A stretch of 58,932 nt of DNA from a bacterium (GTDB lineage Bacteria > UBA6262 > WVXT01), in assembly GCA_046759165.1 (NCBI GenBank), contig JBHIBS010000003.1, positions 1-58,932 on the forward strand. The letters run 5' to 3'. Position numbers and translations under genes: made by a program. A model generated the notes under the pieces. The model made no database searches and was not told the DNA's origin. It was given only the letters and a program-made list of their open reading frames with translations. This document shows, in pieces, positions 1 through 28,313 of this stretch; position 1 is the first letter of the stretch; every line of letters begins with the position of its first letter.

Positions 1-816
1 CATTCTTGTTTCTGAGATTTGCTGAGTGACTTTCTCTCCTGGAAGATGCCCGCCAATTCCAGGTTTTGCTCCCTGGCCAATTTTGATTTCAATCGCCGCT
101 GCCACATCTAAGTAATCGCTGTGTACCCCGAAACGTCCCGAAGCCACTTGAACAATCGTATTTTTACCAAATTGATAAAGGTCTTGATGCAAACCCCCTT
201 CTCCAGTATTATAATAAATACCAAGAGTCTGTGCTGCTTGGGCCAAAGCTAAACATACATTATAACTAATTGAGCCATAAGACATTGCTGAAAACATAAT
301 TGGTGTTTCCAATTCTAATTGAGGCGCCATTTTTGTCTTTAGCTGAAATTTCCTTTTATTATCTCTTTCGACTTCTAATTTTTCTGGTTTAGACCCTAAA
401 TAGGCTTTCAATTCCATCGGTTCCCGTAAGGGGTCAATTGAGGGATTAGTAACCTGACTAGCATCTAATAACAGTTTATCCCAGTAGATCGGATATTCTT
501 TATCGCAACCCATCCCGGATAATAACACACCACCGACTTCAGATTGTTTGAAAATATCCCGAATAACGTTACTGCGCCAGTTATAATTTCTTCGGAATTC
601 CTGAAGGTAAGGAGAAACTACCAGTGCTTGAGTGGGACAAAGTGTAGCACAACGATGGCAGCCAACGCATTTAAAACTATCGCTGATTACTCTATTTCCA
701 TCTCTATCATAAGTATGGACTTCAAATCCGCATTGCCTCACACAAATCTCACACTGGATACATTTTTCTTCATTTCTAATAATTTGAAACTCTGGGTATA
801 GCAGTGATAATTTCAT
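1..816 (-). CDS. Archaeal-type glutamate synthase FMN-binding subunit with N-terminal 2x[4Fe-4S] ferredoxin domain (partial, runs off window)
   Basis: Manual translation from ATG at 816 (ATGA overlap with upstream stop): MKLSLLYPEF...CIQCEICVRQC...CVGCHRCATLCP...YWDKLLLDASQVTNPSIDPLREPMELK; absent from ORF track because truncated. Confidence 0.85.
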   Translation of the reverse strand, partial: MKLSLLYPEFQIIRNEEKCIQCEICVRQCGFEVHTYDRDGNRVISDSFKCVGCHRCATLCPTQALVVSPYLQEFRRNYNWRSNVIRDIFKQSEVGGVLLSGMGCDKEYPIYWDKLLLDASQVTNPSIDPLREPMELKAYLGSKPEKLEVERDNKRKFQLKTKMAPQLELETPIMFSAMSYGSISYNVCLALAQAAQTLGIYYNTGEGGLHQDLYQFGKNTIVQVASGRFGVHSDYLDVAAAIEIKIGQGAKPGIGGHLPGEKVTQQISETRM

Positions 817-1892
817 CTTAATTCTCCTATTGCTGGCTCACCAGCTTTAGGTGCCCAGATCTTATCTGGCTGATGACAAATTTCACGGATGCCACACTCT
901 TCACTGGATAGATAAAACATATCTCCTTTACGAGCAGCCATCAAGGGTCGTAATTTTATTCTATCATTCAAACCGAGCATCCCTTTTCTGTGGCCAAGAA
1001 TTAAGGAAGAAGGACCGTTAACTAATGCACTGCCATAAGTCATCCGAATTGCTTTATTCAATTCTTTTTCCCCGCCAGACATACGCTCTATTTCTGTCCA
1101 ATGAACTGGCGCCAAGGCACGACAGGCTATCTTCAAAGGCAATTTATGCCGGCGAAGAAGCAAATCAAAAAGATAAAGAATTGATTCAGAATCGGCCTGA
1201 AGCATTAATTTGTATCCGAATCCCTCAAGATACCTCTTATTGATCCCATAAGAAGATATCTCACCGTTATGTATCAAAGCCCAATCCAGAAGACCGAATG
1301 GATGAGCACCTCCCCACCAACCAGGTGTATTAGTAGGAAATCTTCCATGAGCAATCCATAGATAAGCTTCATATTCGTCAATACGATAAAAATTAGCAAT
1401 ATCCTCAGGGAATCCCACTCCTTTAAAAATACCCATATTCTTGCCACTTGATATCACAAAAGCACCAGAAAATTGGCTGTTAATTTTCATTACCCAACTT
1501 AATACGATGGAGTCTTCACTCATACCATGAAATTCTTTTCTTATTTCCGGCTTAATTTGTAAAAAATAACGGTAAAGAAGCGGACGGTTAATAATTATTT
1601 CTACTGACCAGGTAGGAATAACTTCTGACTTAACAATTTTAAAATAATGTTTTAAATAACTTTCTGTGTCTTCTTTTGCTTTCCGGTTACTATACATTAA
1701 ATGGAAGCAATACTCATCTTTATTCTCTGGATAAATACCGTATGCAGCAAATCCTCCACCAAGACCATTAGCACGCTGGTGCATTATGTTTATCATCTTA
1801 ATAACGGTCTCGCCTTTGACAAGATTTCCGGATTCGTTCAATATGCCACAAAGTGAACAACCGCTAGGAATGCGCGGATCTACCTTATTCAT
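813..1892 (-). CDS. Class II glutamine amidotransferase, glutamate synthase domain-1 subunit
   Basis: N-terminal GCSLCG, RANGLGGGFA, AHGRFPTNTPGWWGGAHPF, HNGEISSYG motifs; coupled to the FMN subunit. Confidence 0.85.
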   Translation of the reverse strand: MNKVDPRIPSGCSLCGILNESGNLVKGETVIKMINIMHQRANGLGGGFAAYGIYPENKDEYCFHLMYSNRKAKEDTESYLKHYFKIVKSEVIPTWSVEIIINRPLLYRYFLQIKPEIRKEFHGMSEDSIVLSWVMKINSQFSGAFVISSGKNMGIFKGVGFPEDIANFYRIDEYEAYLWIAHGRFPTNTPGWWGGAHPFGLLDWALIHNGEISSYGINKRYLEGFGYKLMLQADSESILYLFDLLLRRHKLPLKIACRALAPVHWTEIERMSGGEKELNKAIRMTYGSALVNGPSSLILGHRKGMLGLNDRIKLRPLMAARKGDMFYLSSEECGIREICHQPDKIWAPKAGEPAIGELR

Positions 1893-1899
1893 TATCTAC

Positions 1900-2145
1900 T
1901 TACCCTTTCCGGTACTGCTCGATTTGAATACCCAATTTTTTAATTTTGGAACGTAAAGTGTTTCTATTTATTCCTAAAATGCTCGCTGCCTTGAGTTGAT
2001 TCCCTTTTGTGTTTTGAAGGATTCTTCCAATTAGAGGTTTCTCTATTGAGGATACAAGGAACTTATATAATTTCTCACCTTTCTCCTTCAAAAACAATTC
2101 CTCAATTTCCTCGATCGCTTTTCCTACTGAATTAATTTCTCTCAT
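1900..2145 (-). CDS. Fis/NtrC-type stand-alone helix-turn-helix protein
   Basis: EKPLI...TKGNQLKAASILGINRNTLRSKIKKLGI Fis-family HTH. Confidence 0.85.
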   Translation of the reverse strand: MREINSVGKAIEEIEELFLKEKGEKLYKFLVSSIEKPLIGRILQNTKGNQLKAASILGINRNTLRSKIKKLGIQIEQYRKG

Positions 2146-4113: not shown

Positions 4114-5403
4114 CTATTGCGTCGTAAATATCTGGAATCCAGCATAGGATTCCATTCCATGCTCCCCAACATCCAACCCTTTTAATTCTTCGTCTCTGGC
4201 TACTCTTAAGCCGATAATACTCTCGATGAATTTAAACATAAGATACATAGCGCTGATGACAAACAAGGTGACCGTGAATGTACCCAAAGCCTGAACACCA
4301 ACTTGAGTCATTCCTCCACCGTGTAGCAATCCGTCACGAGCAAGACCTAAAGCCTTTTGTCCAAAAATACCAACAGACAAAGTACCCCAGATTCCATTTA
4401 TCCCGTGCACCGGGACAGCACCCACCGGATCATCCACGTGAATCCTATCGAGGAACATAATTCCGCTAACCACAATAATTCCTCCTACCGCTCCGATAAG
4501 AATAGCCTCTCCAGGGAAGACAAAGGCACAAGGTGCTGTGATAGCAACTAATCCTGCTAATGCTCCATTCATAGTCATAGAAAGATCAGGTTTTCTAAAT
4601 TTAGACCAGGCAAAGAACATAGCAGTTATTGCACCGCTTGCAGCAGCAAGATTTGTATTTATAGCCACACGAGCAATCAGACTTCCATCACTAACTCCGA
4701 GGGTAGACCCGGGGTTAAAACCAAACCAGCCAAACCACAAGAGGAAAATTCCTAACGAGGCGAGAGGCATAGAATGTCCAGCAATTGCTTTAGCTGAGCC
4801 GTCTGGATTATACTTGCCTATCCTGGGCCCAAGGATAACAGTGCCAATAAAAGCAGCCCAGCCACCCACAGCATGAACAACAGTTGATCCAGCAAAATCA
4901 GCAAAATCTAACCCTGCTAACCAGCCGCCACCCCAAATCCAGTGCCCCACTATTGGATACACAAGAGCAGAGATGAGGAAAGAATAAAGGAGATAAGCCT
5001 GGAATTTCATTCTTTCGGCCATCCCACCAGCAACGATTGTAGCAGCTGTGCCACAGAAAACAGCCTGAAATAACCAGTAAGCATAAAGAGGAAGTCCAGC
5101 TCCTGATTCTGCGCCAGAAAGAAACCAGCCTTTAGTGCCAAAAAGTGCATTTCCTGAACCGAACATAATGGCATAACCAAACATAAAGAAACCAAGAGAC
5201 GCCGTACAGAAATCCATCAAGTTCTTCATGAGGATATTACATGTGTTCTTGGCTCGAATAAGCCCTGCTTCAAGCATTCCAAAACCAGCTTGCATTAAAA
5301 AGACTAAAAACGCTGCAATCAGAACCCAGACAGTATTTAATCCCTTCGCTAAATTTGCTAATTGACCAATGTCTTCCATATTTTCTATACTTTGCCCTCG
5401 CAA
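4114..5403 (-). CDS. amtB: Ammonium transporter
   Basis: FLMQAGFGMLEAG, DFAGSTVVHAVGG, LWFGWFGFNPGS, DDPVGAVPVHG; true start may be ATG 5379. Confidence 0.95.
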   Translation of the reverse strand: MRGQSIENMEDIGQLANLAKGLNTVWVLIAAFLVFLMQAGFGMLEAGLIRAKNTCNILMKNLMDFCTASLGFFMFGYAIMFGSGNALFGTKGWFLSGAESGAGLPLYAYWLFQAVFCGTAATIVAGGMAERMKFQAYLLYSFLISALVYPIVGHWIWGGGWLAGLDFADFAGSTVVHAVGGWAAFIGTVILGPRIGKYNPDGSAKAIAGHSMPLASLGIFLLWFGWFGFNPGSTLGVSDGSLIARVAINTNLAAASGAITAMFFAWSKFRKPDLSMTMNGALAGLVAITAPCAFVFPGEAILIGAVGGIIVVSGIMFLDRIHVDDPVGAVPVHGINGIWGTLSVGIFGQKALGLARDGLLHGGGMTQVGVQALGTFTVTLFVISAMYLMFKFIESIIGLRVARDEELKGLDVGEHGMESYAGFQIFTTQ

Positions 5404-5657
5404 AATCGTCTTAAGTAATCTAAATTGTGATATAAGATATCGTACTTTTCCATCAATTCGGGTGACTCACCACAAATCTCACACAGTCCTTCCATTTCCC
5501 CTAAAGTCTTCAGTGCGCTTACAACGAGACTCCTCGCCACTGCTTTGAACATATCTAATTCACTCATCTTTGATTTCTTCTTTTTCTCCTCCGCTACATT
5601 GTTAAGAGCCTCATCAATTACTTTTTTAAGCCACTCATTTTTGTCGCTCTCAGACAT
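5385..5657 (-). CDS. Hypothetical 90-aa protein
   Basis: Fills the gap between the C26 gene and amt, GAGGA RBS, helical charged sequence with one CxxC. Confidence 0.6.
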   Translation of the reverse strand: MSESDKNEWLKKVIDEALNNVAEEKKKKSKMSELDMFKAVARSLVVSALKTLGEMEGLCEICGESPELMEKYDILYHNLDYLRRFCEGKV

Positions 5658-6401: not shown

Positions 6402-6408
6402 TGCCCAT

Positions 6409-6516
6409 AAAATAAAAAAGCGTTCTATCCATCAGTGGTTAACCCCACCCATTAACGATGGGCGTAGGTAAATAGAACGCCTAAGTCCTTTTGCTATACT
6501 GACCCCTCAACGGGTC
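6409..6516 (-). promoter_or_regulatory. ANTAR-type dual-hairpin leader with overlapping terminator
   Basis: RNA GACCC-GUUGAG-GGGUC (6501-6516), 12-nt linker, GGAC-UUAGGC-GUUC (6475-6488) overlapping terminator GCGUUCUAUUUA...UGGAUAGAACGC-UUUUUUAUUUU. Confidence 0.75.
6441..6473. repeat. 33-bp palindromic element in the terminator loop
   Basis: 26/33 identical to 7016-7048. Confidence 0.6.
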
Positions 6517-6582
6517 TGATCCGTCTCTATCTCTCTACTTATACAAGTAAAAAAAGGGCAATTTTGTTAACTCCTATTTTCC

Positions 6583-7131
6583 TTATTCATCTATTTTATT
6601 GTTCCATTTCTTACAAATATGCTTCTGGATTTTGGATACCCTCACGAAAGAAATATCCAATCTTTTCCCAATTTCTCTCAGCGTATAGCCTTCTAAACAA
6701 AGAGCAAAGACTTCCTTCTCTCTTTTCGTGAGGCCATTTGTCCTCATCTTTTCAATGATTATTTTCCAATTAATCAACTCGGGAAGATGTTGAGAATTAT
6801 CTGGTATTATTTCACCGAGCGTTGTTTCCTCACTATCAATTGGTTCATCAAAACTGATAATTTCACCTTTATCATCAACTGTCCTTAGATAATTCTGAAG
6901 ATGAAACCAGCAACTCTGAAGCAGATAACTCTCAGTCTTTCCTTCAAGTTCGCCTTGTTTCCATTTCTTCCATAAATGAAGGGACATTTCTTGCATTAAA
7001 TCATCTTCATCAATAAACCCTGCCCATCGTTGATGGGCGTGGGTAAATCGTAAGTGTCCATTAACTCGTTTGGCTATTCCCTTAAGTCGAGGGAAAAGTC
7101 CTTCTAAGGACCTTTCAAAATTCACCTCCAT
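6583..7131 (-). CDS. Sigma-70 family (ECF/alternative) RNA polymerase sigma factor
   Basis: Region 2 DEDDLMQEMSLHLW and region 4 LTKREKEVFALCLEGYTLREIGKRLDIS; likely start ATG 7131 or GTG 7125 near AGGAGG rather than 7185. Confidence 0.85.
   Translation of the reverse strand: MEVNFERSLEGLFPRLKGIAKRVNGHLRFTHAHQRWAGFIDEDDLMQEMSLHLWKKWKQGELEGKTESYLLQSCWFHLQNYLRTVDDKGEIISFDEPIDSEETTLGEIIPDNSQHLPELINWKIIIEKMRTNGLTKREKEVFALCLEGYTLREIGKRLDISFVRVSKIQKHICKKWNNKIDE
7016..7048. repeat. 33-bp palindromic element, in frame inside the sigma gene
   Basis: GCCCATC-GTT-GATGGGC core; homologous to 6441-6473. Confidence 0.6.
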
Positions 7132-7183
7132 CACCTCCTGAAAACGGATTTGCACACCATCGTGATGGAGGACTTCCATGTCC
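7125..7183 (-). promoter_or_regulatory. ANTAR-type hairpin overlapping an RBS/start-sequestering stem
   Basis: RNA GGAC-AUGGAA-GUCC (7170-7183); perfect 10-bp stem CCUCCAUCAC/GUGAUGGAGG (7162-7171 with 7125-7134) covering the end of the SD, the spacer and the start region. Confidence 0.6.
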
Positions 7184-7230
7184 ATTCCCTGCCTGCTTTC
7201 CTAGAAGGCAGAGATTTTTCATTGCATTTT

Positions 7231-7266
7231 TTACCCCGTAAGACCTTTGGTCTCTTACGGGGTGAA
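7231..7266. repeat. Palindromic element overlapping the nadE 3' end
   Basis: ACCCCGTAAGA...TCTTACGGGGT 11-bp arms; ends resemble the ACCCCGTTAGA family. Confidence 0.55.
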
Positions 7267-8934
7267 TCTATTGGTGATTGGCATTCTCCTGTCCTTGCCA
7301 AATGCTTTAGGTGTAATCTTTATTCCCGGCGGCGACTGCCGGCGTTTATACTCACTCTTATCAACCATAGTCAAGACTTTATAGGTGGTCTCTTTATCGA
7401 AACCCAAAGAGATAATCTCATTTAAATCTTTATCCTCTTCAATATAAGCCTTCAAAATTGGGTCTAAAGTTTCATAAGTAGGCAATGTATCTCTGTCTTT
7501 CTGCTCGGGTTTAAGTTCGGCAGAGGGCTCTTTTGTTAGCACATGCTCAGGAATAACCAAACCAAGAGAATTCCTGTATCGAGCCAACTTATAAACTAAT
7601 GTTTTAGGTACATCTTTAATTACAGCAAAACCTCCGGCCATATCTCCGTATAGAGTGGCATAACCTGTACTCATTTCCGATTTATTACCCGTGGTTAAAA
7701 CCAGCCAGCCAAATTTATTAGAAAGCGCCATCAAAATATTGCCCCTGATGCGTGCTTGTAAGTTCTCCTCCGTTACATCCCTTTCTAATCCCAAAAAGTG
7801 CGGTTCAAGAATCATTAGGTAAATTTTATATATCTGCTCAATTGAAATATTTATTAATTTTATACCTAAATTTTGTGCCAATTGCCTGGCATCAATTCCG
7901 GATTCTTGCGAAGAATATCGTGAAGGCATAAATACACCGATAACATTTTCCTTGCCTAAAGCATCAACCGCTAAAGTTGCAACAACTGAAGAATCAATCC
8001 CTCCGCTTAAGCCAATAACTGCTTTCTGAAAGCCATTTTTAGTTACATAATCTTTAAGGCCTAAAATCAAAGCCTGATAAATCTCTACAATTGGCTCTAA
8101 TGGTTTAGTTTCTTTTTTAGGTAGCGGAGTTCTATTTTTAGATAATACTTCATCTGTAATCATAATTACTCTTTTTGCTGGTTCGGCCCTACTTGTCGGA
8201 ATATCTAAGTCTACTATTAATAAATCTTCCTTAAATGCTTCTACTGTAGCGATTACCTTGCCATTACTATCCACGACCATACTCTGACCATCAAAAACTA
8301 ATTCGTCTTGTCCACCGACTAAATTGGTATATGCAATAAATACGCCATTATCCTTTGCTTGATTACAAATAATTTCTTCCCTTTCTTTAATTTTGCCTGC
8401 ATGATAAGGCGAGGCACTAATGTTAAGAATTAGTTTTGCTCCAGATAAAACCTGTGATCTTATCGGCCCATCTTGATACCAAATATCTTCGCAAATGTTT
8501 ACGCCCAAGACGAATTCGCCAAATTTAAAAACTAAGGGGTTAATCCCAGATTTGAAATAGCGCTTCTCATCAAAAACACCATAATTAGGTAAAAGCATCT
8601 TGCGGTATATTTCTTTAATCTCGCCATTGTAAATTATAGCACAAGCATTATAGATGTCTTTCTCTTGTCTATCTACAAAACCAACAACAGCTACAATATC
8701 ATTAACAGATTTAATTAATTCTTTTAACTTTTCTAAATTATCTTCAATGAATTTAGGTTTAAGTAAAAGGTCTTCAGGTGGATAACCAGTAATAGCCAGC
8801 TCCGGAAAGGTCACTATATTAATACCCATTGACTTTGCTTCCTCGATGAATTGGCAGATTTTCTGAACATTCCCTTTTAAATCCCCCACCGTGCAATTAA
8901 TTTGAGCCAGACCTATTCTTAGAACCTTTTGCAT
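7255..8934 (-). CDS. nadE: Glutamine-dependent NAD+ synthetase
   Basis: N-terminal nitrilase-like domain ([21 protein letters not shown]) plus [31 protein letters not shown]. Confidence 0.96.
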
Positions 8935-8947: not shown

Positions 8948-9046
8948 AAAAAACGCCCTCAATCCCCTTCATTGGAAGAAGAGGACGTCTGGGTCCAAAA
9001 TAAAAATGTCTTCCAGCCCTGCATCGCCAAAAGACATCAATGTCTT
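8948..9046 (-). promoter_or_regulatory. Tandem hairpin/terminator ANTAR-type leader of nadE
   Basis: AAGAC-AUUGAU-GUCUU (9031-9046) overlapping terminator 9006-9037 plus U tract; GGAC-CCAGAC-GUCC (8983-8996) overlapping terminator 8953-8988 plus U tract. Confidence 0.75.
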
Positions 9047-9076
9047 ACTTCAAAAACCTAAATATTTTTTAAATTA

Positions 9077-9104
9077 ATTATAGCAAAACCTTTATTTTTG
9101 TTAA
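9077..9104 (-). promoter_or_regulatory. Sigma70-type promoter candidate for nadE
   Basis: TTAACA-16-TATAAT with TGn extended -10. Confidence 0.55.
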
Positions 9105-10464: not shown

Positions 10465-10470
10465 CATTCC

Positions 10471-10542
10471 AAAAAAAATGTCCTCCAGCTATCATTGCCA
10501 GAAGACATCAATGTCGCTTCCAGAAAAACACTTACGATGTGC
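10471..10542 (-). promoter_or_regulatory. ANTAR-type dual-hairpin leader with terminator (autoregulatory)
   Basis: GCAC-AUCGUAA-GUGU (10528-10542), 12-nt linker, GAC-AUUGAU-GUC (10504-10515) overlapping 12-bp terminator AUGUCUUCUGGC/GCUGGAGGACAU plus U tract. Confidence 0.8.
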
Positions 10543-10550
10543 CTCAAGTA

Positions 10551-10579
10551 ATTATACGTAATAAAATTATTTTTGTCAA
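10551..10579 (-). promoter_or_regulatory. Consensus sigma70 promoter
   Basis: TTGACA-17-TATAAT exact. Confidence 0.85.
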
Positions 10580-14712: not shown

Positions 14713-14792
14713 TTGTAGAATGCTTTGCTGTATTTGATTCATATTTTACCTATTCTTTCCCTCTTTTGTCCAGAAATTTTTAGAGAGCTCTT

Positions 14793-18548: not shown

Positions 18549-19244
18549 TTATCTACTCTCCAACCATTTGACAATCGACTTGAAAATTAAAAGTCCATCT
18601 TTTGAGCCAAGTGCTTCCTCAGAACTCCTCTCAGGGTGGGGCATCATTCCTAATATATTTCTTCCCTCATTTATAATTCCAGCAATATTGTCTAATGCTC
18701 CATTCGGATTAAATTCGCTCGTAGTGTTGGCTTCCTTATTACAATAACGAAATACAATCTGTTTATTTCTCTTAATCTGTTTAAGTCCTTTTTCATCAAT
18801 ATAGTAGTTACCCTCATTATGGGCTATTGGTATTTTTAAAATTTGATTCTTTTGACAAAGATTTGTAAAAGGTGTCTCATTATTTTCTGCCTTTATATAC
18901 ACATACTTACAGATAAAATGGAGATTTTTATTCCTCAACATCGCACCAGGCAAAAGTGCTGTCTCTAGCAGGATTTGGAAACCATTGCAGATTCCAATTA
19001 CTGCTTTTCCCTTCCTGGCAAATTCAGAAATTCGCTTCATTATGGGAGAAAATCTGGCTATTGCTCCGGTTCTTAGATAATCTCCATAACTAAAACCTCC
19101 CGGTAATACAATACAATCAAAGTTGTCCAATTTTGTATCCTTATGCCAGATATATTTAACCGGTTGATTCAGAATGTCCTCAATTACATAAAAACAATCC
19201 TGGTCGCAGTTAGAACCAGGGAAGACAACTACACCAAATCTCAT
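18549..19244 (-). CDS. purQ: FGAM synthase glutaminase subunit PurQ
   Basis: [33 protein letters not shown]. Confidence 0.96.
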
Positions 19245-19493
19245 CTACACCTCTTCTATCTTAAAGCTATAATCTTCTATGATAGGATTGGCTAATAACT
19301 TGTGACACATTTGGTTAACTTTTGTTTCAGTCTCTCTTTTATCTTTTAGATTTAATTTTATAGTAATTAACTTCCCCACACGAACCTCTTCTACTTCCTT
19401 ATAATTTAGAGAATCCAAAGCACGTTTAATAGTTAAGCCTTGAGGATCAGACACTGTCTTTTTTAGAGTGATATAGATTTCTGCTTTTACCAT
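19245..19493 (-). CDS. purS: FGAM synthase subunit PurS
   Basis: DPQG and LLANPIIEDY motifs. Confidence 0.95.
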   Translation of the reverse strand: MVKAEIYITLKKTVSDPQGLTIKRALDSLNYKEVEEVRVGKLITIKLNLKDKRETETKVNQMCHKLLANPIIEDYSFKIEEV

Positions 19494-19496: not shown

Positions 19497-21059
19497 TTAC
19501 TCCCATTCAATTGTGCTTGGTGGTTTGGAGGAAATATCATATACGACACGGTTTAACCCTTTGACTTCATTTATAATACGATTAGAAATTCTCTCCAGTA
19601 TCTCATAGGGGAGCTTCGCCCAATGAGCAGTCATTGCATCCTCACTTGTTACTGCCCTTATAGCTACCACATTCTCATATGACCTCTTATCTCCCATTAC
19701 TCCCACTGTCTTTATGGGTAAAAGAACGCAAAATGACTGCCATAATTTCCGATATAATTTTCCACGTTTTATCTCATCCATTAATATCCAGTCTGCCTCG
19801 CGCAAGATATCCAGTCTTTCTTTAGTAATAGCGCCTATAACGCGCACTGCCAGTCCCGGACCCGGAAAAGGCTGCCTGTAAATAATATCCTCGGGCAATC
19901 CTAGTTCTTTACCAACGAGCCTTACCTCGTCTTTAAATATATCTTTGAGTGGCTCGATTAACTCAAACCTTAAATGGGGTGGTAATCCTCCAACATTATG
20001 ATGGCTCTTGATAGTTGCCGAAGGTCCCCCAATTGGAGATCTTGATTCAATTACATCTGGATATAATGTGCCTTGAGCCAAAAACTTAATCTTTCCTAAC
20101 TTTTTTGCCTCTCTTTCAAAAACATCTATAAATAATCTTCCGATGGTTTTGCGTTTGGTTTCAGGATTTTTGACCCCTCTTAGGGCCCTTAAGAAAGTAT
20201 CTTGTGCATTTACAACTATTAGGTTAATCCGATAGTAATTCTTAAATCTTGTTTTAACAAGTGCTACTTCATCTTTGCGCAAAAGCCCGTTATCAATAAA
20301 GATGGCTGTTAAATTCCTTCCTATGGCTTTATGAAGTAATACTGCCAAAACAGACGAATCTACACCTCCGCTCAATCCACACAAAACTTTTTCATTGCCT
20401 ATCCTTTGTTTCAGTTCATTAATCGAATTTTTGACAAACGAATGCATACTCCAGGAAGGTCTGCAATTTGCTAAATAATAAAGAAAATTCTTCAATATCT
20501 TTTTTCCTTTTGGCGTGTGAACTACTTCGGGATGAAATTGGAGTCCGTAGAATCTTCTGGCCTTATTCTCCATTGAAGCAATAGGAGAATTCTCGGTTGA
20601 CCCGATTGTCCGAAAACCTTTGGGTAATCGCGAAATCTTATCTCCATGACTCATCCAGATAGTTTCCTTTGATGATAATCCTTTGAATAAGCTCTCTTTA
20701 GATTTCACTTGAAGAGTAACCTTTCCATATTCGCTTGCCTTGGCTTTTACAACTCTGCCCCTAAAAACTTTAGCAATAAGTTGTGCTCCGTAACAAATCC
20801 CAAGGATGGGAATACCTATATTGAATATATCTCTATCGCATATAGGGCTTTTTCTTGAAGTAACGGTGCCAGGCCCGCCTGAGAAAATAATAGCCTTTGG
20901 CACTCTTTCTAAAAGTTGGCGGGAGTCGATGTTGTAAGGGACTATTTCGGAATAAACACCGCACTCTCTTACTCTCCGCGCAATGAGATGGGTGTATTGG
21001 GAGCCGAAATCTAAAATAGCAACCCAATTTTGTTTTTTATCTTTATGTTCGAGATTCAT
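19497..21059 (-). CDS. guaA: GMP synthase (glutamine-hydrolysing)
   Basis: [49 protein letters not shown]; likely start ATG 21059. Confidence 0.97.
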
Positions 21060-22707
21060 CTTCTGTTTCATAAGTGGAGTAATAATAAGGAGTATAGGCC
21101 TCAAATTCTGCGCCACATGTATCAACAAGTTTAAAAGTAGGCAAAATGCCTCTTTCTTTGCGCAATTTATAAATTAAACTTTCATCCATTCCAAAAAGTT
21201 TGGACAATTGTTTATCAGAAAAACCATATTCCTTGGCCTTGTAGATAAGGTATGTAGGAATTTTAGATTTACTTCTCCCTTTATAGGAGTTGAGCTCTTT
21301 TTCCAGGTCTACAATCTCTTTTATATTATACAAAAACCATCTGTCAATCTTACTCAACTCATACACCTCATCTATATTCATACCTTTCTTTAACGCGTAT
21401 TTTATATAAAATACCCTCTCTGCATTGGGCACCCTTAATTTCTCTTCCAGTCTTTCATCTGAAACCCCATCTTTTAAATCCTCCAATCCAAAAATCCCTA
21501 TTTCTAAAGAGCGCAGCCCTTTTTGCAGTGCTTCTTTAAACGTTCGGCCAATAGCCATCACCTCACCTACAGATTTCATAGAGACGGTTAATGAAGGGTC
21601 TGCTTCAGGAAATTTCTCAAATGTAAAGCGAGGAATCTTCACTACACAATAATCAATAGTTGGCTCAAAACAAGCCTGGGTCTCTTTGGTGATGTCATTT
21701 GGGATTTCCTCTAATGTGTAACCAATGGCTAATTTTGCCGCGATCTTTGCAATAGGAAAACCTGTAGCTTTAGAAGCTAAAGCCGAACTTCTTGATACCC
21801 TAGGATTCATCTCAATAATAACCATTTTACCATTTTCAGCATTTATGGCAAACTGAATATTTGACCCTCCTGTCTCAACACCTATCTCTCTAATGCAGGC
21901 AATTGCTGCATCGCGCATTTTTTGATATTCTTTATCGGTCAATGTTTGCGCTGGAGCAACAGTAATTGAATCTCCTGTATGAATTCCCATAGGATCAAAA
22001 TTTTCTATTGAACATATAATGACGACGTTATCCTTTAAGTCTCTCATTACCTCTAATTCAAACTCCTTCCAGCCAATAAGAGACTCCTCAATTAATATCT
22101 CGCTAATCATACTTGACTCAAGGCCCCTTTCAGCCACCTCTTTAAATTCTTCTCTATTGTATGCTACACCTCCCCCTGTCCCACCTAAAGTAAAACTTGG
22201 ACGAACGATCACAGGAAAACCTACACTCTCAACTACATCAAGAGCCTCTTTTATGTCGTAAGCCTTTCCGCTTTTGGGCAAATCCAATCCAATCTTTTGC
22301 ATTGCCTCCTTAAATAGTTCTCTGTCCTCTGCTTTTTTGATTGCCTCGACATCTGCCCCAATTATCTCTACTTTATATTTACTTAAAATACCTCTTTTTG
22401 CTACGGCTACAGTAACATTTAACGCGGTTTGACCACCTAATGTTGGCAAAATAGCATCGGGTCTTTCTCTTTCAATTACTTTTTCAACCACTTCTGGGGT
22501 AATCGGTTCAATATAAGTTCTATCAGCCATCACCGGATCAGTCATAATAGTAGCAGGATTGCTATTCAGCAAAATCACCTTAAACCCTTCGGTTTTTAAA
22601 ACCTTACAAGCTTGCGTGCCTGAATAGTCAAATTCACAGGCCTGGCTAATAATTATAGGACCCGAGCCAATAATGAGAATTTTGTTAATATCAGTTCTCT
22701 TAGGCAC
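21043..22707 (-). CDS. carB: Carbamoyl-phosphate synthase large subunit, N-terminal half only
   Basis: [42 protein letters not shown]; ends at [19 protein letters not shown] after 554 aa. Confidence 0.92.
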
Positions 22708-23815
22708 GATTTAGCTCCATCATCTTAACAAATTCATCGAACAAGTATTGTGCATCATGAGGTCCGGGAGATGCTTCAGGATGAAATTGCACTGAAAATA
22801 TAGGAAGTTTTTTATGCTTGATTCCTTCTAAGGTGTTGTCATTGAGGTTAATATGGGTTATCTCGATATCTTCCTTATTCAAAGAATCCATATCCACACA
22901 GAATCCATGATTTTGTACAGTTATATAAACCTTACCTGTGTTCAAGTCCTTGACAGGATGGTTTGCTCCATGATGACCAAATTTAAGCTTGTAAGTCTTT
23001 CCGTCCAGGGCCAATCCCAACATCTGGTGCCCTAAACAGATGCCGAAAACTGGTAATTTGCCGATTAATTTTTTAACAGTTTCAACTACATAAGGAACGC
23101 CTGCCGGGTCTCCTGGGCCATTGGAAAGTAATATGCCATCTGGTTCCATCGTTAGAATTTGCTCGGCTTCTGTCTTTGCTGGGACAATAATCACCTGGCA
23201 CTCATTATTGACTAATTCCCTCAAAATATTAAACTTAACTCCGCAATCTACAACTACTACTTTGTACTTGCCTCGTTCATTCCAATTTTGGACTCTATCA
23301 GCTGTAACTTCCTTAACCAAATCCCTGCCAATCAGCCCAGGTGAAGACTTAGCCTTTTCAATTAAGCTTTTTTCATCTAAATTCTCAGTGGAAATAACAG
23401 CCTTCATCGCGCCTTGTAATCTAATATGTCGGGTAAGTGCGCGTGTATCTATACCCTCTATCCCTATTATACCATTTTCTTTAAGGTATTCGTCTAGGCT
23501 TTTTTGTGAGCGCCAATTACTGGCAATGCGGCTACATTCCTTAACCACAAAACCTTCCACAAATGGCTTTCTTGACTCAACATCTTCGGAATTTATACCA
23601 TAGTTACCGATGAGTGGATAGGTCATGGTGACGATCTGACCTTTATAGGAAGGATCGGTGAGGACTTCTTGATAACCAGTCATGCTGGTACTAAAGACTA
23701 CTTCACCGAATCTGGTTCCACTTGCACCGAAGGAGAAACCTTCAAAGGCTCTGCCATCTTCAAGAGCAATCCTTGCCTTCCTTTGTTTATTCCCATAGCC
23801 TTGGTTCTTCATCAA
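22700..23815 (-). CDS. carA: Carbamoyl-phosphate synthase small subunit
   Basis: [41 protein letters not shown]. Confidence 0.97.
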
Positions 23816-23818: not shown

Positions 23819-25384
23819 TTAACCCAGGATTTGGTCCACTTTTTCCTTATCGTAATCCATTACATAGGCAATGCCAGAGATTTCTGAAGCTGACCTGGTT
23901 ATAGCAAAGATATCATCTCGGTTGATATACTTTAGAGCGAATTTTCTTTCGCCAGCCATAAGCTGTCTTAGACCTGTTGCTAATCGATCGTAGTAGGTAT
24001 ACATCCCAATAGCACCTGTGGGGATATCTTTGAAGTCCTTTCCATATTTTCCCTTTAACGTTTCAGCCGCAACGAAAATCTGTTCTATTGTATGCCCATA
24101 TTTCTTATATTCAGCAGGCACCTTACCTTCTTTTATAAGGTTACCCACTGTCTTGGCGGCCATCGCCGCAGCAAACGTTGCTCTACCCATACATATAGCC
24201 TTCACATAAGGTGCAGCCAATGCTATAGCCTTGAAAATGTGGTCTTCTAACGCAAGGCCTCCAGCTATTGCTACTGGCGGAATATATTTACCCTGCTCGT
24301 CTATTCTCTTTAACATTTGATAGAGAAGGCATTCTAACTCAACGGTGGGGATGCCCCACTCGTTCATCATTCTCCAGGGACTCATCCCAGTTCCTCCACC
24401 TGCTCCATCTACTGTAATCAGATCAATTTTAGCATTGGAAGCATACTTGACCGCTCTAGCCAAATCGACTGGTCGATAAGCACCTGTTTTTAGGGTTACA
24501 TATTTAAATCCGAGCTTTCTTAAGCGCTCCACTTCTTTGTAAAACGCTTCTTCTTCAACCATGCCAAGTCTTGAATGTCTTTCAAATTCTTTAATAGCCC
24601 CCTCTTTGTAGGCCTTCTTTGTCACAGGGTCTTCTGGGTCAGGATAGACGATATAACCCCTCTTCTTAAGTTCAAGGGCTCTTTCTATCGATGGCAATTT
24701 AACTTCTCCTCCTATATCTTTAGCTCCTTGACCCCACTTAGGCTCAATAGCCTCCACGCCAAGCTCCAGGACATATTCGGGAACACCAAGCCTTCCATCT
24801 TCAACATTATATTGAACTACTATCGTTCCATTTCCTGTATGCCATTTCCTGTAACTCTTGATTCTGCGTTCCATTTCTGCCGATTTTACTATCCTTCCGT
24901 TCTTAATCTCAGCTCGGTGATCCATCCCACAGACATTCTCTCCTACAACCACTATTGTTCCACATATAGCTGCGCCTACAGCGTTCTCTTCCCAATTGAT
25001 CCTCGCTATCTCAGTTGAGCCTAGAGCACCTGTAAAGAATGGCACATCTAACCTAAGCTTATTTTCCCCTCCCACTTCTGTGGCCACATTAACATTGGGA
25101 AATGTAGCTTTATCCGGATCCGCTTCTACACCAACTGCACCAACACATGTCCCGTGAATATTGAAATGAGAAAAATCTATTGGGTAATCCTTTTCACAAC
25201 CAGCAACAATCTTTCCAAAAGGCTGAGGGTAAATAAGTTCTCTTCCTCTAATACCTGATTTTGCAACCTCACAAAAGCCTACGCAACCATCAAGACATGT
25301 AACACAGAGTCCAGAAATTGGCGCTGGATTTACCCTATTTCTGGTATTTGTTGCAGGACTTGCATTTGGTTTACTAAAAGACAT
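23819..25384 (-). CDS. FMN-binding glutamate synthase family protein (stand-alone)
   Basis: N-terminal CVTCLDGC..FC cluster, KWGQGAKDIGGE, TVDGAGGGTGMSP, IAGGL; AGGAGG RBS. Confidence 0.85.
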   Translation of the reverse strand: MSFSKPNASPATNTRNRVNPAPISGLCVTCLDGCVGFCEVAKSGIRGRELIYPQPFGKIVAGCEKDYPIDFSHFNIHGTCVGAVGVEADPDKATFPNVNVATEVGGENKLRLDVPFFTGALGSTEIARINWEENAVGAAICGTIVVVGENVCGMDHRAEIKNGRIVKSAEMERRIKSYRKWHTGNGTIVVQYNVEDGRLGVPEYVLELGVEAIEPKWGQGAKDIGGEVKLPSIERALELKKRGYIVYPDPEDPVTKKAYKEGAIKEFERHSRLGMVEEEAFYKEVERLRKLGFKYVTLKTGAYRPVDLARAVKYASNAKIDLITVDGAGGGTGMSPWRMMNEWGIPTVELECLLYQMLKRIDEQGKYIPPVAIAGGLALEDHIFKAIALAAPYVKAICMGRATFAAAMAAKTVGNLIKEGKVPAEYKKYGHTIEQIFVAAETLKGKYGKDFKDIPTGAIGMYTYYDRLATGLRQLMAGERKFALKYINRDDIFAITRSASEISGIAYVMDYDKEKVDQILG

Positions 25385-25519
25385 TTTTTACCTCCTTTCT
25401 GCACATTAGTTTTTTCTTCATATTCACTTTCATGTCCGCCGCTAAAATAATTGCTTCGGGCACTTTGCGCATGGTCCTACGGTAATTCACAATATCTTTG
25501 AATCCGGAGTCAACGGAAG

Positions 25520-25674
25520 AATAAAAAAGCGTTCTTTTGCCAAAACGTATGACATTGAACGCCATTGTTCTAAAAAACGTACTTCTCTTAGCAAACTTTG
25601 TTACTAAAAGGACGTCTTTATCCAGTTCTTCTAACGAACACCTTTGTCCATTTTTCAAGCACTATCCTTGTGCT
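25520..25674 (-). promoter_or_regulatory. Four-hairpin, two-terminator ANTAR-type leader
   Basis: GCAC-AAGGAUA-GUGC (25659-25673), GGAC-AAAGGU-GUUC (25636-25649), GGAU-AAAGAC-GUCC (25610-25623) then imperfect stem plus U6, GAAC-AAUGGC-GUUC (25557-25570) overlapping GCGUUC...GAACGC-U6. Confidence 0.85.
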
Positions 25675-25690
25675 CTATTTTACAAAACAA

Positions 25691-25719
25691 ATCCTATCAC
25701 AAGGCCTTAGACATGTCAA
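25691..25719 (-). promoter_or_regulatory. Sigma70-type promoter
   Basis: TTGACA-17-TAGGAT with TGn. Confidence 0.7.
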
Positions 25720-25732: not shown

Positions 25733-26419
25733 TCAGCTCATTTTTCTTCGTCCCCTGCAAACTTTAACGCAGATTCCACAAATATGATGCCCTATGTTAC
25801 AAGTCTTTCTAAATTCATCTAATTTCCTGTAACAGGCAAGCCAATCAAAATCTTCAAGCTTCTCTTTGATAGCTCCTGCTGGGCAGACTCCCAAGCAGTC
25901 CTCGCAGTCATCACACCCATTTTCTATCGGTTTGTCACAGGGAAGAGGAAAATCGGTTAAAACAGTAACCAGTCTAATCCGAGAACCGAAATCTGGATTA
26001 ACCAATAGATTGTTTCTACCAATCCAGCCCAGGCCCGCCTGTTGTGACACCTCCTTATGTGAAAGATGGCCTCTCTGCTTCTCCCAATCAATGGTCTGGG
26101 AAGACGGTATTGGCAAAGCATTCCCGCCCCTATTTTGAATAAATTGCGTGACTCCCAGAGCCACACGGTCCAAAAAATAATTCACTTGGCGGTAATGGTA
26201 ATAGTAGAGTTTAGTTGGTCTATCCTCAATACTCTCAATTATCTTCTCAGACAACCTCACTGCTAAAGAAATACCCTTATTCAATCCTTTAATGACTCCG
26301 GGAGATAAATTTAAAAATTCACCTTTCAACTTGGGAAGGTCAGCAACTCCAAATAACGAAGCTCCCGATTCCAAGGCAAACTCTTTTAGTTTAGAATAGT
26401 TTTCTCTCTCCTGATCCAT
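25733..26419 (-). CDS. Epoxyqueuosine reductase (QueG)-like 4Fe-4S protein
   Basis: AGLGWIGRNNLLV..FGSRIRLVTVLTD, CDDCEDCLGVCP, CGICVKVC. Confidence 0.75.
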   Translation of the reverse strand: MDQERENYSKLKEFALESGASLFGVADLPKLKGEFLNLSPGVIKGLNKGISLAVRLSEKIIESIEDRPTKLYYYHYRQVNYFLDRVALGVTQFIQNRGGNALPIPSSQTIDWEKQRGHLSHKEVSQQAGLGWIGRNNLLVNPDFGSRIRLVTVLTDFPLPCDKPIENGCDDCEDCLGVCPAGAIKEKLEDFDWLACYRKLDEFRKTCNIGHHICGICVKVCRGRRKMS

Positions 26420-26432
26420 ATTTCACATCCTT

Positions 26433-28313
26433 TTAACTTCCCATCCTCTTCATGTGAACCATTAAGATAGCAATAGCAGCTGGAGTAACTCCTGAAATGC
26501 GTGAAGCCTGACCTAAAGAGCCTGGTCTTATCTTAGACAATTTTTCTCTCACCTCGTTCGATAAACCAACAATTTCCTCATAATTAATTCCCGCAGGAAT
26601 TTTTCTATTCTCCAGTTTCTTAAACTTTTCTATCTCTTGCTTTTGGTGTTTGATATATCCTTCATATTTAATTTGGATTTCCACCTGCTCGGCTACCTCC
26701 AATGGAACCTCACCACTTTTCTTATCAAAAAGTTTCAAATCAGAGTGAGAAATTTCAGGTCTCCTCAATAGTTCAGCTAAACTGATTGGACTTCTCAGAG
26801 TTACCCATCCCGATTCGGAAAATTTCTTATTTGTCCTGGAATTGGGAAAAATCTTGACCTCTTTTAATCGAGCCAGCTCTTTTTCAATAGCTCTCTTTTT
26901 AGCTTCGACCTCTTGGTATCTCGCTTCTCCAGCCAGCCCGATGCTATATGCCTTCTCGGTTAGTCTCAAGTCGGCATTATCTTCTCTCAAAATTAGTCGG
27001 TACTCAGCTCGGGAAGTGAACATACGATAAGGTTCCTTAGTTCCCTTAGTTACTAGATCATCAATCAAAACACCAATATAACCTTCCGAACGGTCGAGGA
27101 TAAATGGTGTCTTATTCTGTATTTTCAGGGCAGCGTTAATTCCACCAATTAATCCTTGTGCTGCTGCCTCTTCATAACCAGTGGTCCCATTAATTTGGCC
27201 GCAGAAGTAGAGATTGTCAATTGATTTGGTCTCCAGTGTTGGTCTTAGCTGTGTGGGTTCGACATAATCATGCTCAATACCATACCCAGGTCGCATTATC
27301 TCTATACCTTCCAAACCCTCGATAGTTCGCAACATCCTGAACTGGATATCTATAGGCAAACTGGTCGCTAAGCCATTGGGATAAAATTCGGATGTATTAA
27401 GACCTTCTGGTTCCAAAAAAATCTGATGTCGTTCTCTTTCCGGGAATTTCATTACCTTATCTTCAATGGAGGGACAGTAGCGTACCCCTGTCCCTTTAAT
27501 AACACCCGTATAAAGAGGGGAACGGTTCAGACCTTCTCTGATTAGCTGGTGCGTTTTAGGATTCGTGTAAGTAATATAACAGGGTAGTTGAGGCTGAGTT
27601 ACCTTTTTAGTAGTAAAAGAGAAAGGAACGGGAACTTCATCGCCTTTTTGTGATTTAAGTTTAGAAAAATCGATAGTTTTCCCATCCAGGCGAGGACAGG
27701 TTCCAGTCTTGAATCTGCCTATTTGAAAACCGAGTTCCTTCAGATTCTGAGAAAGTTTTACTGCCGGGAAGTCACCCATCCTGCCAGCCGGGAAATTCAT
27801 CAAACCAATATGAATTAATCCATTTAAGAAAGTTCCGGGAGTAATAATCACCGCTTGTGCATAAAACTTCTCACCAATGCTTGTTTTTACTCCCACTACA
27901 GCGCTTTCCTCTACCAGAATTTCTTCAACCAAGGCTTGCTTTAATTCCAAATTTTCCTGCCTCTCTAAGACCTCTTTCATCCCCAGCCGGTAGGCTTGCC
28001 TATCTACCTGTGCTCGTGAGCCGCGGACAGCTGGACCTTTCGCCATGTTCAATCGTCGAAATTGAATAGCTGTTGCATCCGTATTCTTGCCCATCTCTCC
28101 ACCTAAGGCATCGATCTCTTTAACCAACTGACCCTTCGCTAAACCACCAACTGCCGGGTTACAAGACATAAAGGCAATAGTATCCAAATTCATACTCAAA
28201 AGCAGAGTTCGGCAACCAAGCCGAGATGCCGCAAGAGCAGCCTCACAGCCAGCGTGGCCGCCGCCCACTACAATAACCTTATATTCTCTATCTCTAGGTT
28301 CCAACCCTGCCAT
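26433..28313 (-). CDS. mnmG: tRNA uridine-5-carboxymethylaminomethyl synthesis enzyme
   Basis: VVGGGHAGCEAA, MSCNPAVGG, RYCPSIEDK, GQINGTTGYEEAAAQG, EPYRMFTSRAEYRL. Confidence 0.97.
   Translation of the reverse strand: MAGLEPRDREYKVIVVGGGHAGCEAALAASRLGCRTLLLSMNLDTIAFMSCNPAVGGLAKGQLVKEIDALGGEMGKNTDATAIQFRRLNMAKGPAVRGSRAQVDRQAYRLGMKEVLERQENLELKQALVEEILVEESAVVGVKTSIGEKFYAQAVIITPGTFLNGLIHIGLMNFPAGRMGDFPAVKLSQNLKELGFQIGRFKTGTCPRLDGKTIDFSKLKSQKGDEVPVPFSFTTKKVTQPQLPCYITYTNPKTHQLIREGLNRSPLYTGVIKGTGVRYCPSIEDKVMKFPERERHQIFLEPEGLNTSEFYPNGLATSLPIDIQFRMLRTIEGLEGIEIMRPGYGIEHDYVEPTQLRPTLETKSIDNLYFCGQINGTTGYEEAAAQGLIGGINAALKIQNKTPFILDRSEGYIGVLIDDLVTKGTKEPYRMFTSRAEYRLILREDNADLRLTEKAYSIGLAGEARYQEVEAKKRAIEKELARLKEVKIFPNSRTNKKFSESGWVTLRSPISLAELLRRPEISHSDLKLFDKKSGEVPLEVAEQVEIQIKYEGYIKHQKQEIEKFKKLENRKIPAGINYEEIVGLSNEVREKLSKIRPGSLGQASRISGVTPAAIAILMVHMKRMGS

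Follow-up and report, generated by a model that had tools for sequence, protein, structure and literature searches.

The gene block

The stretch of DNA analysed here (the window) is contig JBHIBS010000003.1 of assembly GCA_046759165.1, 58,932 nucleotides long (GTDB lineage Bacteria; UBA6262; WVXT01). It forms the whole of contig C3 of a draft genome, G000, of 1.885 Mb in 165 contigs (92% complete, 3.5% contamination). It carries a co-directional block of about 35 kb in which genes for ammonium assimilation are gathered with the glutamine-dependent amidotransferase steps of several biosynthetic pathways and with two ANTAR-domain regulators. The initial annotation had placed these genes at 1–28313, where they are indeed found, but the block reaches as far as cinA (31839) in one direction and, in the other, crosses position 1 into the terminal part of contig C1. 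The contig end cuts the FMN subunit of glutamate synthase (GOGAT), the remainder of which lies at C1:85553-86302; the end of C1 also holds an Fe-S protein, an FAD oxidoreductase and the GXGXG subunit of GOGAT, followed by housekeeping genes. All evidence is computational and derives from metagenome-assembled genomes (MAGs), and gene identities come from NCBIfam and Pfam profile searches of the window proteins.

In order of transcription the block runs cinA, an NYN-domain gene, the GAF-ANTAR gene, mnmG, a queG-like gene, unk521, carA, carB, guaA, purS, purQ, purL, hisH and hisF, and continues with purF, pyrG, queC, the GAF-GAF-ANTAR gene, nadE, a sigma-70/LuxR-type helix-turn-helix (HTH) gene, a C26-type glutamine amidotransferase (GATase) gene, orf90, amt, the PII gene, glnA, orf81 and the genes of the GOGAT glutaminase and FMN subunits. 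Its central genes are the following.

1..816 (−): GOGAT FMN/4Fe-4S subunit (gltB), N-terminal part; Pfam Glu_synthase 1.6e-54 and Fer4
813..1892 (−): GOGAT class-II glutaminase subunit (gltB GATase); GATase_2 1.8e-10; 56% identity to the gltB GATase gene of Desulfotomaculum copahuensis locus L132
2215..3648 (−): glnA, type I glutamine synthetase; TIGR00653, 671 bits
3677..4036 (−): PII nitrogen regulatory protein; PRK10858 2.9e-32, below its cut-off
4114..5403 (−): amt, ammonium transporter; TIGR00836, 441 bits
5673..6401 (−): Peptidase C26 / class-I GATase; PF07722 1.3e-61
7255..8934 (−): nadE, glutamine-dependent, with nitrilase-type glutaminase and synthetase domains; PRK13981, 754 bits
9121..10329 (−): GAF-GAF-ANTAR regulator; two GAF domains and ANTAR (PF03861) 3.1e-20
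10750..11484 (−): queC; TIGR00364, 201 bits
11546..13156 (−): pyrG, CTP synthase; 832 bits
13178..14608 (−): purF with Cys nucleophile (..EACGVFGI); TIGR01134, 558 bits, and alignment
14793..15551 (−): hisF, imidazole glycerol phosphate (IGP) synthase with hisH; TIGR00735, 394 bits
15572..16177 (−): hisH; TIGR01855, 247 bits
16340..18574 (−): purL, phosphoribosylformylglycinamidine (FGAM) synthase; profile match
18549..19244 (−): purQ, FGAM synthase; profile match
19245..19493 (−): purS; position of the open reading frame (ORF) and 62% homologue in genome G004
19497..21128 (−): guaA, full-length GMP synthase; 795 bits
21043..22707 (−): carB half, 554 aa; model positions 1-545 of 1058
22700..23815 (−): carA; GICLGHQ and FHPE intact
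23819..25384 (−): unk521, 521-aa FMN-binding glutamate-synthase-family protein; PF01645 3.2e-15; atlas clusters scoring 0.99
26433..28313 (−): mnmG; 906 bits
28472..29251 (−): GAF-ANTAR regulator; GAF and ANTAR (PF03861) 6.8e-20

The true start of guaA probably lies later than called, as the model match begins at residue 36. Of the carAB pair reported by the initial annotation, carA is complete, but carB is the N-terminal half only, with the pre-ATP-grasp, ATP-grasp and oligomerisation domains; the G000 assembly has no C-terminal half as a gene of its own. Half-size CarB also stands beside glutamine-type CarA in the related genomes G002 (569 aa) and G009 (551 aa); in G004 CarB is full-length (1072 aa). 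A MnmE-MnmG pair had likewise been reported and was dropped, since only mnmG lies here and mnmE is on contig C6.

The gathering itself is real and far from chance. PF00117 has seven matches in the whole assembly, six of which fall at 5751–23257 of this contig, while the seventh is a second carA on C23; random placement of six of seven within 17.5 kb has a probability of about 3e-9 (a rough bound). Nine of the 12 glutaminase-competent amidotransferase genes occupy 1.9% of the assembly (chance about 6e-14). Class-II matches in a whole-assembly Pfam search comprise purF and the GOGAT glutaminase in the block, glmS on C12 and an asnB-like gene on C17.

The remaining pathway steps

The initial annotation had noted that the amidotransferase genes stand here apart from the rest of their pathways, and the genome bears this out. 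Contig C15 carries the run pyrR-pyrB-pyrC-pyrK-pyrD-pyrF-pyrE, with carAB missing between pyrC and pyrK, and pyrG is likewise apart from it. Contig C44 carries hisD-hisB-hisA, with hisH missing between hisB and hisA. The run purM..purH..purB is found on C63 and purD on C152; purF and purSQL are missing from the contigs carrying purM, purH and purB, from which guaA is also separate. Because these runs lack exactly these steps, operons that are ordinary in other respects have been stripped of their amidotransferase genes, and the genes of the block are grouped by nitrogen donor and not by pathway. The pyr and his runs keep the order of the Bacillus-type operons as these are usually described, whereas carAB, hisH, purF and purSQL sit in the nitrogen cluster instead.

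Other amidotransferases were located elsewhere in G000: glmS follows pdxJ on C12, the asnB-like gene lies among glycosyltransferases on C17, and gatA-gatB is on C26. A trpG or pabA was considered and dropped, there being no stand-alone PF00117 match in the assembly. Second copies of carAB, purF, nadE, the C-terminal half of guaA and glnA exist, but none is part of a pathway operon. No IMP dehydrogenase scored above the TIGR01302 cut-off in G000, the best candidate being a 397-aa frame on C24 (116 bits); guaB is either divergent or in the unassembled part of the genome.

Glutaminase-dead and glutaminase-less paralogues

A point new to this analysis is that the cluster, judged by catalytic residues and domain content, holds specifically the glutamine-dependent isoforms, with glutaminase-dead or glutaminase-less paralogues encoded elsewhere. 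On contig C23 lie a gene of the nitrilase family, carA2, a carB of full length and purF2, an arrangement kept in the family. CarA2 lacks the catalytic Cys-His-Glu triad: all seven orthologues have Ser for the catalytic Cys (GIS(L/S/A)GHE) and YYP- for FHPE, whereas the cluster CarA and five other CarA sequences retain GICLGHQ and HPE. PurF2 starts with MSGIFGV in all four orthologues, and so has no Cys nucleophile (a PurF2-like protein of G009 starts with MAGIFGI), while the cluster PurF (..ACGVFGI) keeps the N-terminal Cys. PurF2 scores 221 bits against a purF family cut-off of 350. G000 also encodes a single-domain NadE without glutaminase domain (C6), a second GlnA (C8) and a stand-alone C-terminal (ATP-pyrophosphatase) half of GuaA (C2), for which no separate GATase was found anywhere in the assembly. 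PurL2, about 50% identical to PurL, and HisF2, about 68% identical to HisF, are found in relatives.

The same Cys-to-Ser change (Ser294) is described as leaving human carbamoyl-phosphate synthetase (CPS) 1 unable to use glutamine, so that CPS1 uses ammonia only (PMC4655335). Replacement of Cys1 in Escherichia coli PurF is described as abolishing glutamine use while ammonia can still serve, and archaeal PurF' paralogues without the Cys are mentioned there with no proven role (PMC3261824). By analogy, the paralogues should work on free ammonia. Unlike in CPS1 and PurF', both changes are found here in bacterial genes that lie close together (carA2-carB-purF2), intact glutamine-dependent copies being present as well, and the lineage combines them with GATase-less forms of PurL, HisF, NadE and GuaA.

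Two observations concern these paralogues individually. CarA2 matches in relatives are flagged with one internal TAG, and the ORF calls start about 20 nt later; the match is suspected to run past the real start codon. HisF (14793-15551) and HisF2 (L050, 17489-18253) are almost identical within the family over their C-terminal third and differ over the N-terminal two thirds, which hints at gene conversion or recombination between the copies.

Attenuator leaders and transcription units

The single super-operon proposed by the initial annotation dissolves into six or more units that have promoter-like sites and terminators of their own and each start with an ANTAR-type attenuator (four class-A, one triple class-B and one class-B-like). 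Promoter-like sites lie at 10579, 9104, 14772 and 25719 (promoter/terminator scan and sequence), so that neither one promoter nor an absence of internal terminators is found. The leaders are as follows.

6402..6582 (−): class-B-like leader; GGAC TTAGGC GTTC hairpin, then a long terminator ending GAACGC and a T-run; resembles a G002 leader
8996..9104 (−): promoter-like site (11/12) and class-A attenuator upstream of nadE; AAGAC ATTGAT GTCTT hairpin
10468..10579 (−): perfect TTGACA-17-TATAAT and class-A attenuator upstream of GAF-GAF-ANTAR; GAC ATTGAT GTC hairpin
14664..14772 (−): class-A attenuator of the purF-pyrG-queC unit, upstream of purF; homologue of the leader that precedes pyrG in relatives
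25385..25719 (−): promoter-like site and three tandem ANTAR-type attenuators upstream of unk521 ('orf94' of the ORF list); hexaloops AAAGGT, AAAGAC and AATGGC
28346..28432 (−): class-A attenuator upstream of mnmG; AGCAT ATTGAA ATGTT hairpin

The scan shows three near-identical sites of hairpin and T-run upstream of GAF-GAF-ANTAR, nadE and purF, two of which follow promoter-like sites matching at 12/12 and 11/12 positions. The class-B-like leader precedes the C26-orf90-amt-PII-glnA-GOGAT unit. In the triple leader, common to G000 and G002, each unit consists of a 4-bp hairpin with a hexaloop, the 3' arm of which is reused as the 5' arm of a further hairpin; a T-run follows that further hairpin in units 2 and 3 but not 1 in G000, and in all three in G002. 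The leader ahead of purF in G000 is homologous to the one between hisF2 and pyrG in relatives.

A covariance model (R1), built from the G000 class-A copies and one G002 copy, has 17 matches in nine of the 12 genomes of the phylum: four in the G000 cluster, which are all those of G000, six in the interval from hisF2 to pyrG, another six in that from GAF-ANTAR to mnmG, and one before a gene for a PPDK_N-domain protein. Across 18 distinct class-A sequences the terminator helix is paired in 97.8% of cells, and 9 of 13 pairs change on both sides, which none of 500 shuffles reaches. The class-B pattern has ten matches in seven of the 12 genomes and none in a reversed control. By coordinates, these lie ahead of orf90-GAF_ANTAR-unk521-carA in G002 and G004, of unk521 in G000, of gdhA in G003 and G004, of guaA in G006 and upstream of the carA run in G010 (in both of the latter with an unannotated gene between), with one in G007. 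Thus ANTAR proteins and leaders both accompany the cluster in relatives, and the same adjacency stripped of them, which the initial annotation would have counted against itself, was not seen.

Hairpin and terminator exclude each other, as the terminator's 5' arm begins with the hairpin's 3' arm; the terminator is itself backed by covariation. An A..G.. hexaloop is clear in three of the four G000 class-A leaders, in the triple class-B leader and in G009, where the leader shows a clean pair of A..G.. hexaloop hairpins (the textbook dual hairpin). Of all 18 class-A leaders only 7 have such a hexaloop, often on a single hairpin and not a pair. A first regular expression had nine matches over the genome, with a T-tail only in the three within the cluster, and a sequence-specific class-A expression gave nothing meaningful in relatives and other phyla. 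A generic structural scan of the whole genome for A..G.. attenuators gave 51 matches, mid-range among 16 loop classes and hence no excess. The 370 nt upstream of carA2 show no sign of an attenuator (fold z = 0.18).

The PPDK_N-domain (PEP-utilising enzyme-like) protein follows its class-A leader in G009 (L149, G009:C116). In a Thermodesulfobacteriota-labelled locus with unk521 and GAF-ANTAR close by, gdhA is likewise followed by a PPDK_N-type protein, of 910 aa (L067, 13192-15924). This kind of protein may be a further member of the regulon.

Distribution within the phylum

The GTDB phylum comprises 12 species genomes only (G000-G011), all of them MAGs. The genes hisH, purQ, glutamine-type carA and glutamine-type purF each occur in the same seven (G000, G001, G002, G004 and G009-G011) and were not found in G003 and G005-G008 (83-96% complete), so that not every member of the family has the module. 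These five instead have purL2 and hisF2 side by side, CarA2, PurF2, single-domain NadE and the C-terminal half of GuaA, with a run gdhA-(guaA)-purL2-hisF2 and a glutamine synthetase of the GlnA2 type only; the query used gave no amt match in them. Their class-I GATase domains are limited to those of pyrG, guaA (in two genomes), the dead CarA2 and a stand-alone GATase of about 190 aa. One G003 contig reads attenuator, gdhA, guaA, purL2, hisF2, attenuator, pyrG, queC, which leaves no room for purSQL-hisHF-purF at the place where G002 has them.

Both sets occur together in G001, G002 and G004, and G000 has no gdhA, purL2 or hisF2 match. Glutamine-type NadE was found only in G000 and G004 among the 12 genomes. 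Comparison with relatives, as the initial annotation had proposed, reveals shared runs: G001, G002 and G004 carry unk521-carA-carB-guaA-purSQL-hisHF-purF, whole or in part, and on contig C2 of G002 the order from unk521 to purF is that of G000, followed by an extra purL2-hisF2 pair and by pyrG-queC. G009, which belongs to another family, has its own amidotransferase run (gdhA-carA-half carB-glmS-purF-pyrG), and the gathering of amidotransferases therefore predates family f1.

unk521 and loci beyond the phylum

The protein unk521, labelled 'FMN-binding glutamate synthase family' and about 520-530 aa long, has counterparts of 60-72% identity in MAGs that bear the labels Thermodesulfobacteriota, Dehalococcoidia, Nitrospirota, Bacillota and Aerophobetes. 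In a search for its relatives, 587 of 600 candidate stretches were confirmed. The best 80 of these 587 loci (L064-L143) have as neighbours GAF-ANTAR (13, and 4 more of the two-GAF form), glnA (13), hisF (9), nadE (7), carB (6), carA (5) and purF (5); hisF is adjacent to unk521 in five Dehalococcoidia-labelled loci among them. Locus L068 reads unk521-carA-carB-guaA-hisH-hisF-nadE, L112 contains a similar run, and the Aerophobetes locus L072 contains a nadE-like gene, GAF-ANTAR, gdhA, unk521, hisH, hisF and purF. Upstream of unk521, ANTAR-type attenuators whose loops read AAAGGC/AAAGAC are present in 5 of 78 loci (six matches against 0.35 expected), and A..G.. is the commonest of 16 loop classes at this place in the 78; the strict attenuator pattern is found in L072 only. 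By sequence, the only match of unk521 to a solved structure is a designed TIM barrel (E = 5e-4).

Gene order in these loci indicates that partial versions of the module recur in other phyla around a conserved unk521. Since it stands repeatedly beside GAF-ANTAR, glnA, gdhA or amidotransferase genes, unk521 is a candidate marker of ANTAR nitrogen regulons.

Other genes of the block and window

The block contains six further genes.

1900..2145 (−): orf81, 81-aa Fis-family HTH protein; PF02954 HTH_8 1.7e-12
5385..5657 (−): orf90, small conserved protein; homologues (41-47%) precede GAF-ANTAR in G002 and G004; no Pfam match
6583..7185 (−): 200-aa sigma-70 region 4 / LuxR-type HTH protein; TIGR02937, 52 bits; Sigma70_r4 and GerE
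25733..26419 (−): QueG / reductive-dehalogenase-like Fe-S protein; TIGR00276 2.1e-19, below its cut-off
29214..30533 (−): NYN-domain protein (predicted RNase) with coiled-coil N-terminal part; PF01936 6e-30
30547..31839 (−): cinA (NMN deamidase family); PRK00549, 439 bits

The orf81 protein accompanies GAF-ANTAR and unk521 in relatives, its G004 homologue lying between GAF-ANTAR and an unk521-like gene. The cinA gene is the first of a conserved unit, cinA-GAF_ANTAR-leader-mnmG. The NYN gene lies between cinA and GAF-ANTAR in G000 only, and cinA directly precedes GAF-ANTAR in G001 and G005-G008. In G003 (L156, G003:C100, 1591-2817) an IS605 OrfB/TnpB-like gene with a Cas12f1-like TNB domain replaces GAF-ANTAR upstream of the mnmG leader.

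All long ORFs of the 59-kb contig are on the minus strand. From 32 to 59 kb the window holds thi, accBC, efp, aro, uvrC, murJ and holA, and no his, pur or pyr gene among the annotated ones; GC of 1-28 kb is 0.36-0.44, slightly below the rest. The genes thiC, thiE and a ThiD2-family gene lie at 33706-36999, and Rfam finds no thiamine pyrophosphate riboswitch in the window, even at E <= 1. A 110-aa ORF at 45313-45645 aligns solely with the central part of the release factor 2 model (positions 227-306 of 353) and may be a small release-factor-domain protein rather than a broken prfB.

Candidate signal and proposed mechanism

Both regulators contain an ANTAR RNA-binding domain, and the best NCBIfam matches of their GAF domains are PtsP (EI-Ntr) and NifA. 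EI-Ntr's GAF domain is described as binding glutamine (PMC4848567) and that of NifA as binding 2-oxoglutarate (PMC6490700). Because of these matches, the most economical guess is that the GAF-ANTAR proteins sense glutamine or 2-oxoglutarate.

The block is probably a 'glutamine module' under nitrogen-status control, switched by ANTAR antitermination and standing beside an ammonia-based enzyme set. It pairs high-affinity ammonium assimilation (Amt, PII, glutamine synthetase and an archaeal-type GOGAT) with the glutamine-dependent isoforms of seven amidotransferases, namely CarA with the half CarB, GuaA, PurLQS, HisHF, PurF, PyrG and NadE, alongside QueC, MnmG and unk521. The leader of each unit is predicted to form a small A..G.. 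hexaloop hairpin that shares its 3' arm with an intrinsic terminator. The two GAF-ANTAR proteins would bind the nascent hairpins, block the terminator and permit read-through, the level of which would be set for each unit by glutamine or 2-oxoglutarate. Ammonium capture, glutamine synthesis and glutamine spending would then rise and fall together, in a 'glutamine economy' in which scarce ammonium is taken up, fixed into glutamine and spent through the amidotransferases, while the glutaminase-free set would carry biosynthesis when free ammonia is plentiful. We infer from the sequences the RNA binding, the sensed signal and the direction of regulation in this scheme, and the use of ammonia by the paralogues.

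Systems of this kind have precedents. In Geobacter, GnfK/GnfR reportedly relies on an ANTAR response regulator to relieve terminators ahead of nitrogen-assimilation genes; unlike in that system, the input in G000 is a GAF domain and not two-component, and the Geobacter cascade is not known to involve a gathering of amidotransferases.

In Desulfotomaculum acetoxidans the ANTAR nitrogen regulon is described as having 13 leaders in six units, and ANTAR recognition as requiring two small hairpins, whose hexaloops carry A at position 1 and G at position 4, and competition with a terminator (Ramesh et al., 2012, PMC3369931). The G000 block resembles the regulons of that description in its ANTAR regulators, in A1/G4 hexaloop hairpins (clear in some leaders only) overlapping intrinsic terminators, in its several units and in targets that include PII, amt, glnA and glutamate synthase. 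It differs in that amidotransferase steps of purine, pyrimidine, histidine, GMP, CTP and NAD synthesis are added, the units are contiguous and the sensor is a GAF domain, a domain called uncharacterised for ANTAR proteins in PMC3369931. No published description of an amidotransferase gene cluster was found, although the supplementary tables of PMC3369931 may list some such targets. ANTAR nitrogen regulons are thus already known and the G000 block is a variant of them, distinguished by the recruitment of biosynthetic amidotransferases, by contiguity, by GAF input and above all by the parallel glutaminase-free enzyme set.

Weighing the alternatives

An assembly or binning chimera, which the initial annotation had named as the finding that would undo it, is excluded for practical purposes and is very improbable. 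It could appeal to a draft MAG of 165 contigs with 3.5% contamination and to a second purM on a short contig of higher GC, but Logan contigs from three runs span the junctions between 5001 and 25000, and independent MAGs of other species share the gene order. The bridging contigs come from runs X1 (20.7 and 25.1 kb) and X2 (11.8 kb), possible sources of this DNA, and X3 (eight of 1.1-2.4 kb), a different sample of the same study. The second purM, complete, is on the 2.5-kb contig C118 (L012; GC 0.465 against 0.42 for the genome) and may itself be bin contamination. Very unlikely, too, is a neutral history. In this view, drift in a small, rearranged genome with a strong strand bias brought the genes together, and the hairpins are just terminators of the usual kind or dispersed repeats that share no regulation. 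As all long ORFs of the contig point the same way, co-orientation is nothing special, and the generic scan shows no genome-wide excess of A..G.. attenuators; yet the chance probability of the placement is minute, the leader families are confined to this regulon (all four R1 matches in G000, ten of ten class-B pattern matches, none in controls), and the leaders lie 5' of genes after promoter-like sites and not at gene ends generally. Moreover, the same associations recur across phyla around unk521 and GAF-ANTAR, with attenuators exceeding expectation there.

Horizontal acquisition of the glutamine module as a block, with clustering reflecting the unit of transfer and not selection for co-regulation in this lineage, is unlikely as a replacement for the proposed mechanism and is compatible with it. 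The module is patchy within one family (found in G000, G001, G002 and G004 but not in five of six genus-g4 genomes), and between G000 and G004 it is less conserved (hisH 55%, purF 65%, hisF 71-72%) than are neighbouring housekeeping genes between G000 and genus g4 (pyrG 85-88%, mnmG 85-90%, carB 90-93%). Runs resembling it are found in other phyla, with identities of 54-71% (L068, L112), and the lower GC of 1-28 kb points the same way. General annotation shows no integrase or transposase among the window proteins, however, nor was a tRNA or flanking repeat noticed there, with no scan aimed at either, and G009-G011, of other families, also have glutamine-type carA, purF, hisH and purQ, so that the module may be ancestral and lost in g4; transfer also leaves the assembly of the module in a donor unexplained. 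Somewhat more credence, still well short of even, is due to the view that the Ser-bearing or GATase-less paralogues are pseudoenzymes or have other roles, the five genomes being auxotrophs or having the cluster unbinned, and the ANTAR regulon merely including ordinary biosynthetic genes. The unproven role of archaeal PurF' (as described in PMC3261824), the sub-threshold score of PurF2 and the possibility that clustered genes are lost together when MAGs 83-96% complete are binned all speak for it. Against it, the paralogues are under purifying selection (across genera CarA2 is 78-86%, PurF2 84-89% and the CarB beside CarA2 90-93% identical), the single G003 contig has no space for purSQL-hisHF-purF, and the same four absences recur in five independent MAGs.

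The ANTAR-switched glutamine module accounts best for these data, but several observations weigh against it. Control by nitrogen status, as the initial annotation proposed, is plausible given the ANTAR regulators and the conserved leaders, but is read from sequence only. The genes glmS, gatAB and the asnB-like gene lie outside the cluster. In relatives purL2-hisF2 and gdhA stand behind the same attenuators, which means that the regulon extends beyond glutamine users, and a regulated glutamine set opposed to a constitutive ammonia set is too neat a picture. As purL, hisHF, pyrG and queC are sole copies in G000, no full switch-off is feasible and attenuation must be partial. Although 7 of 18 class-A leaders have A..G.. 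hexaloop hairpins, against 2.8 +/- 1.5 in shuffles, related sequences inflate this test, and the other 11 lack such a hairpin with a stem of at least 3. An Rfam scan of the whole window (E <= 1) gave only a chance snoRNA match and no riboswitch or leader family. The alignment of the cluster HisF with HisF2 shows few fixed differences and the loss of no motif that we take to be catalytic or part of the channel; nothing in the HisF2 sequence appears to mark ammonia specificity. Finally, completeness of the MAGs is 76-98%, and every absence reported here stands for 'not found'.

Implications

Tentatively, the phylum may run two parallel nitrogen-donor systems in the synthesis of nucleotides, histidine and NAD. 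One would be an ammonia-only set (GdhA, CarA2(Ser)-CarB, PurF2(Ser), PurL2 lacking PurQ, HisF2 lacking HisH, a single-domain NadE and a GuaA that has no GATase), the other a dispensable glutamine module (Amt-PII-GS-GOGAT and the glutamine-dependent isoforms) switched by GAF-ANTAR attenuators, with some species living on the ammonia set alone. Such species would have no glutaminase partner for CPS, PurF, FGAM synthase or IGP synthase. If true, they would be the first free-living bacteria known to live on an ammonia set alone, and would exemplify in nature a metabolism whose organising principle is the nitrogen donor.

Grouping by pathway is the usual arrangement of genes. What unites this conserved block is a co-substrate, and its sequence offers evidence of a common switch at the RNA level, which makes it a concrete and testable case of regulation shaping genome layout. 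The paired isoforms, together with natural presence/absence variants in close relatives, make the need for glutamine as opposed to free ammonia testable. GAF-ANTAR regulators gain candidate targets and a candidate signal, glutamine or 2-oxoglutarate, and the widespread, uncharacterised unk521 family is linked to nitrogen control in several anaerobic phyla.

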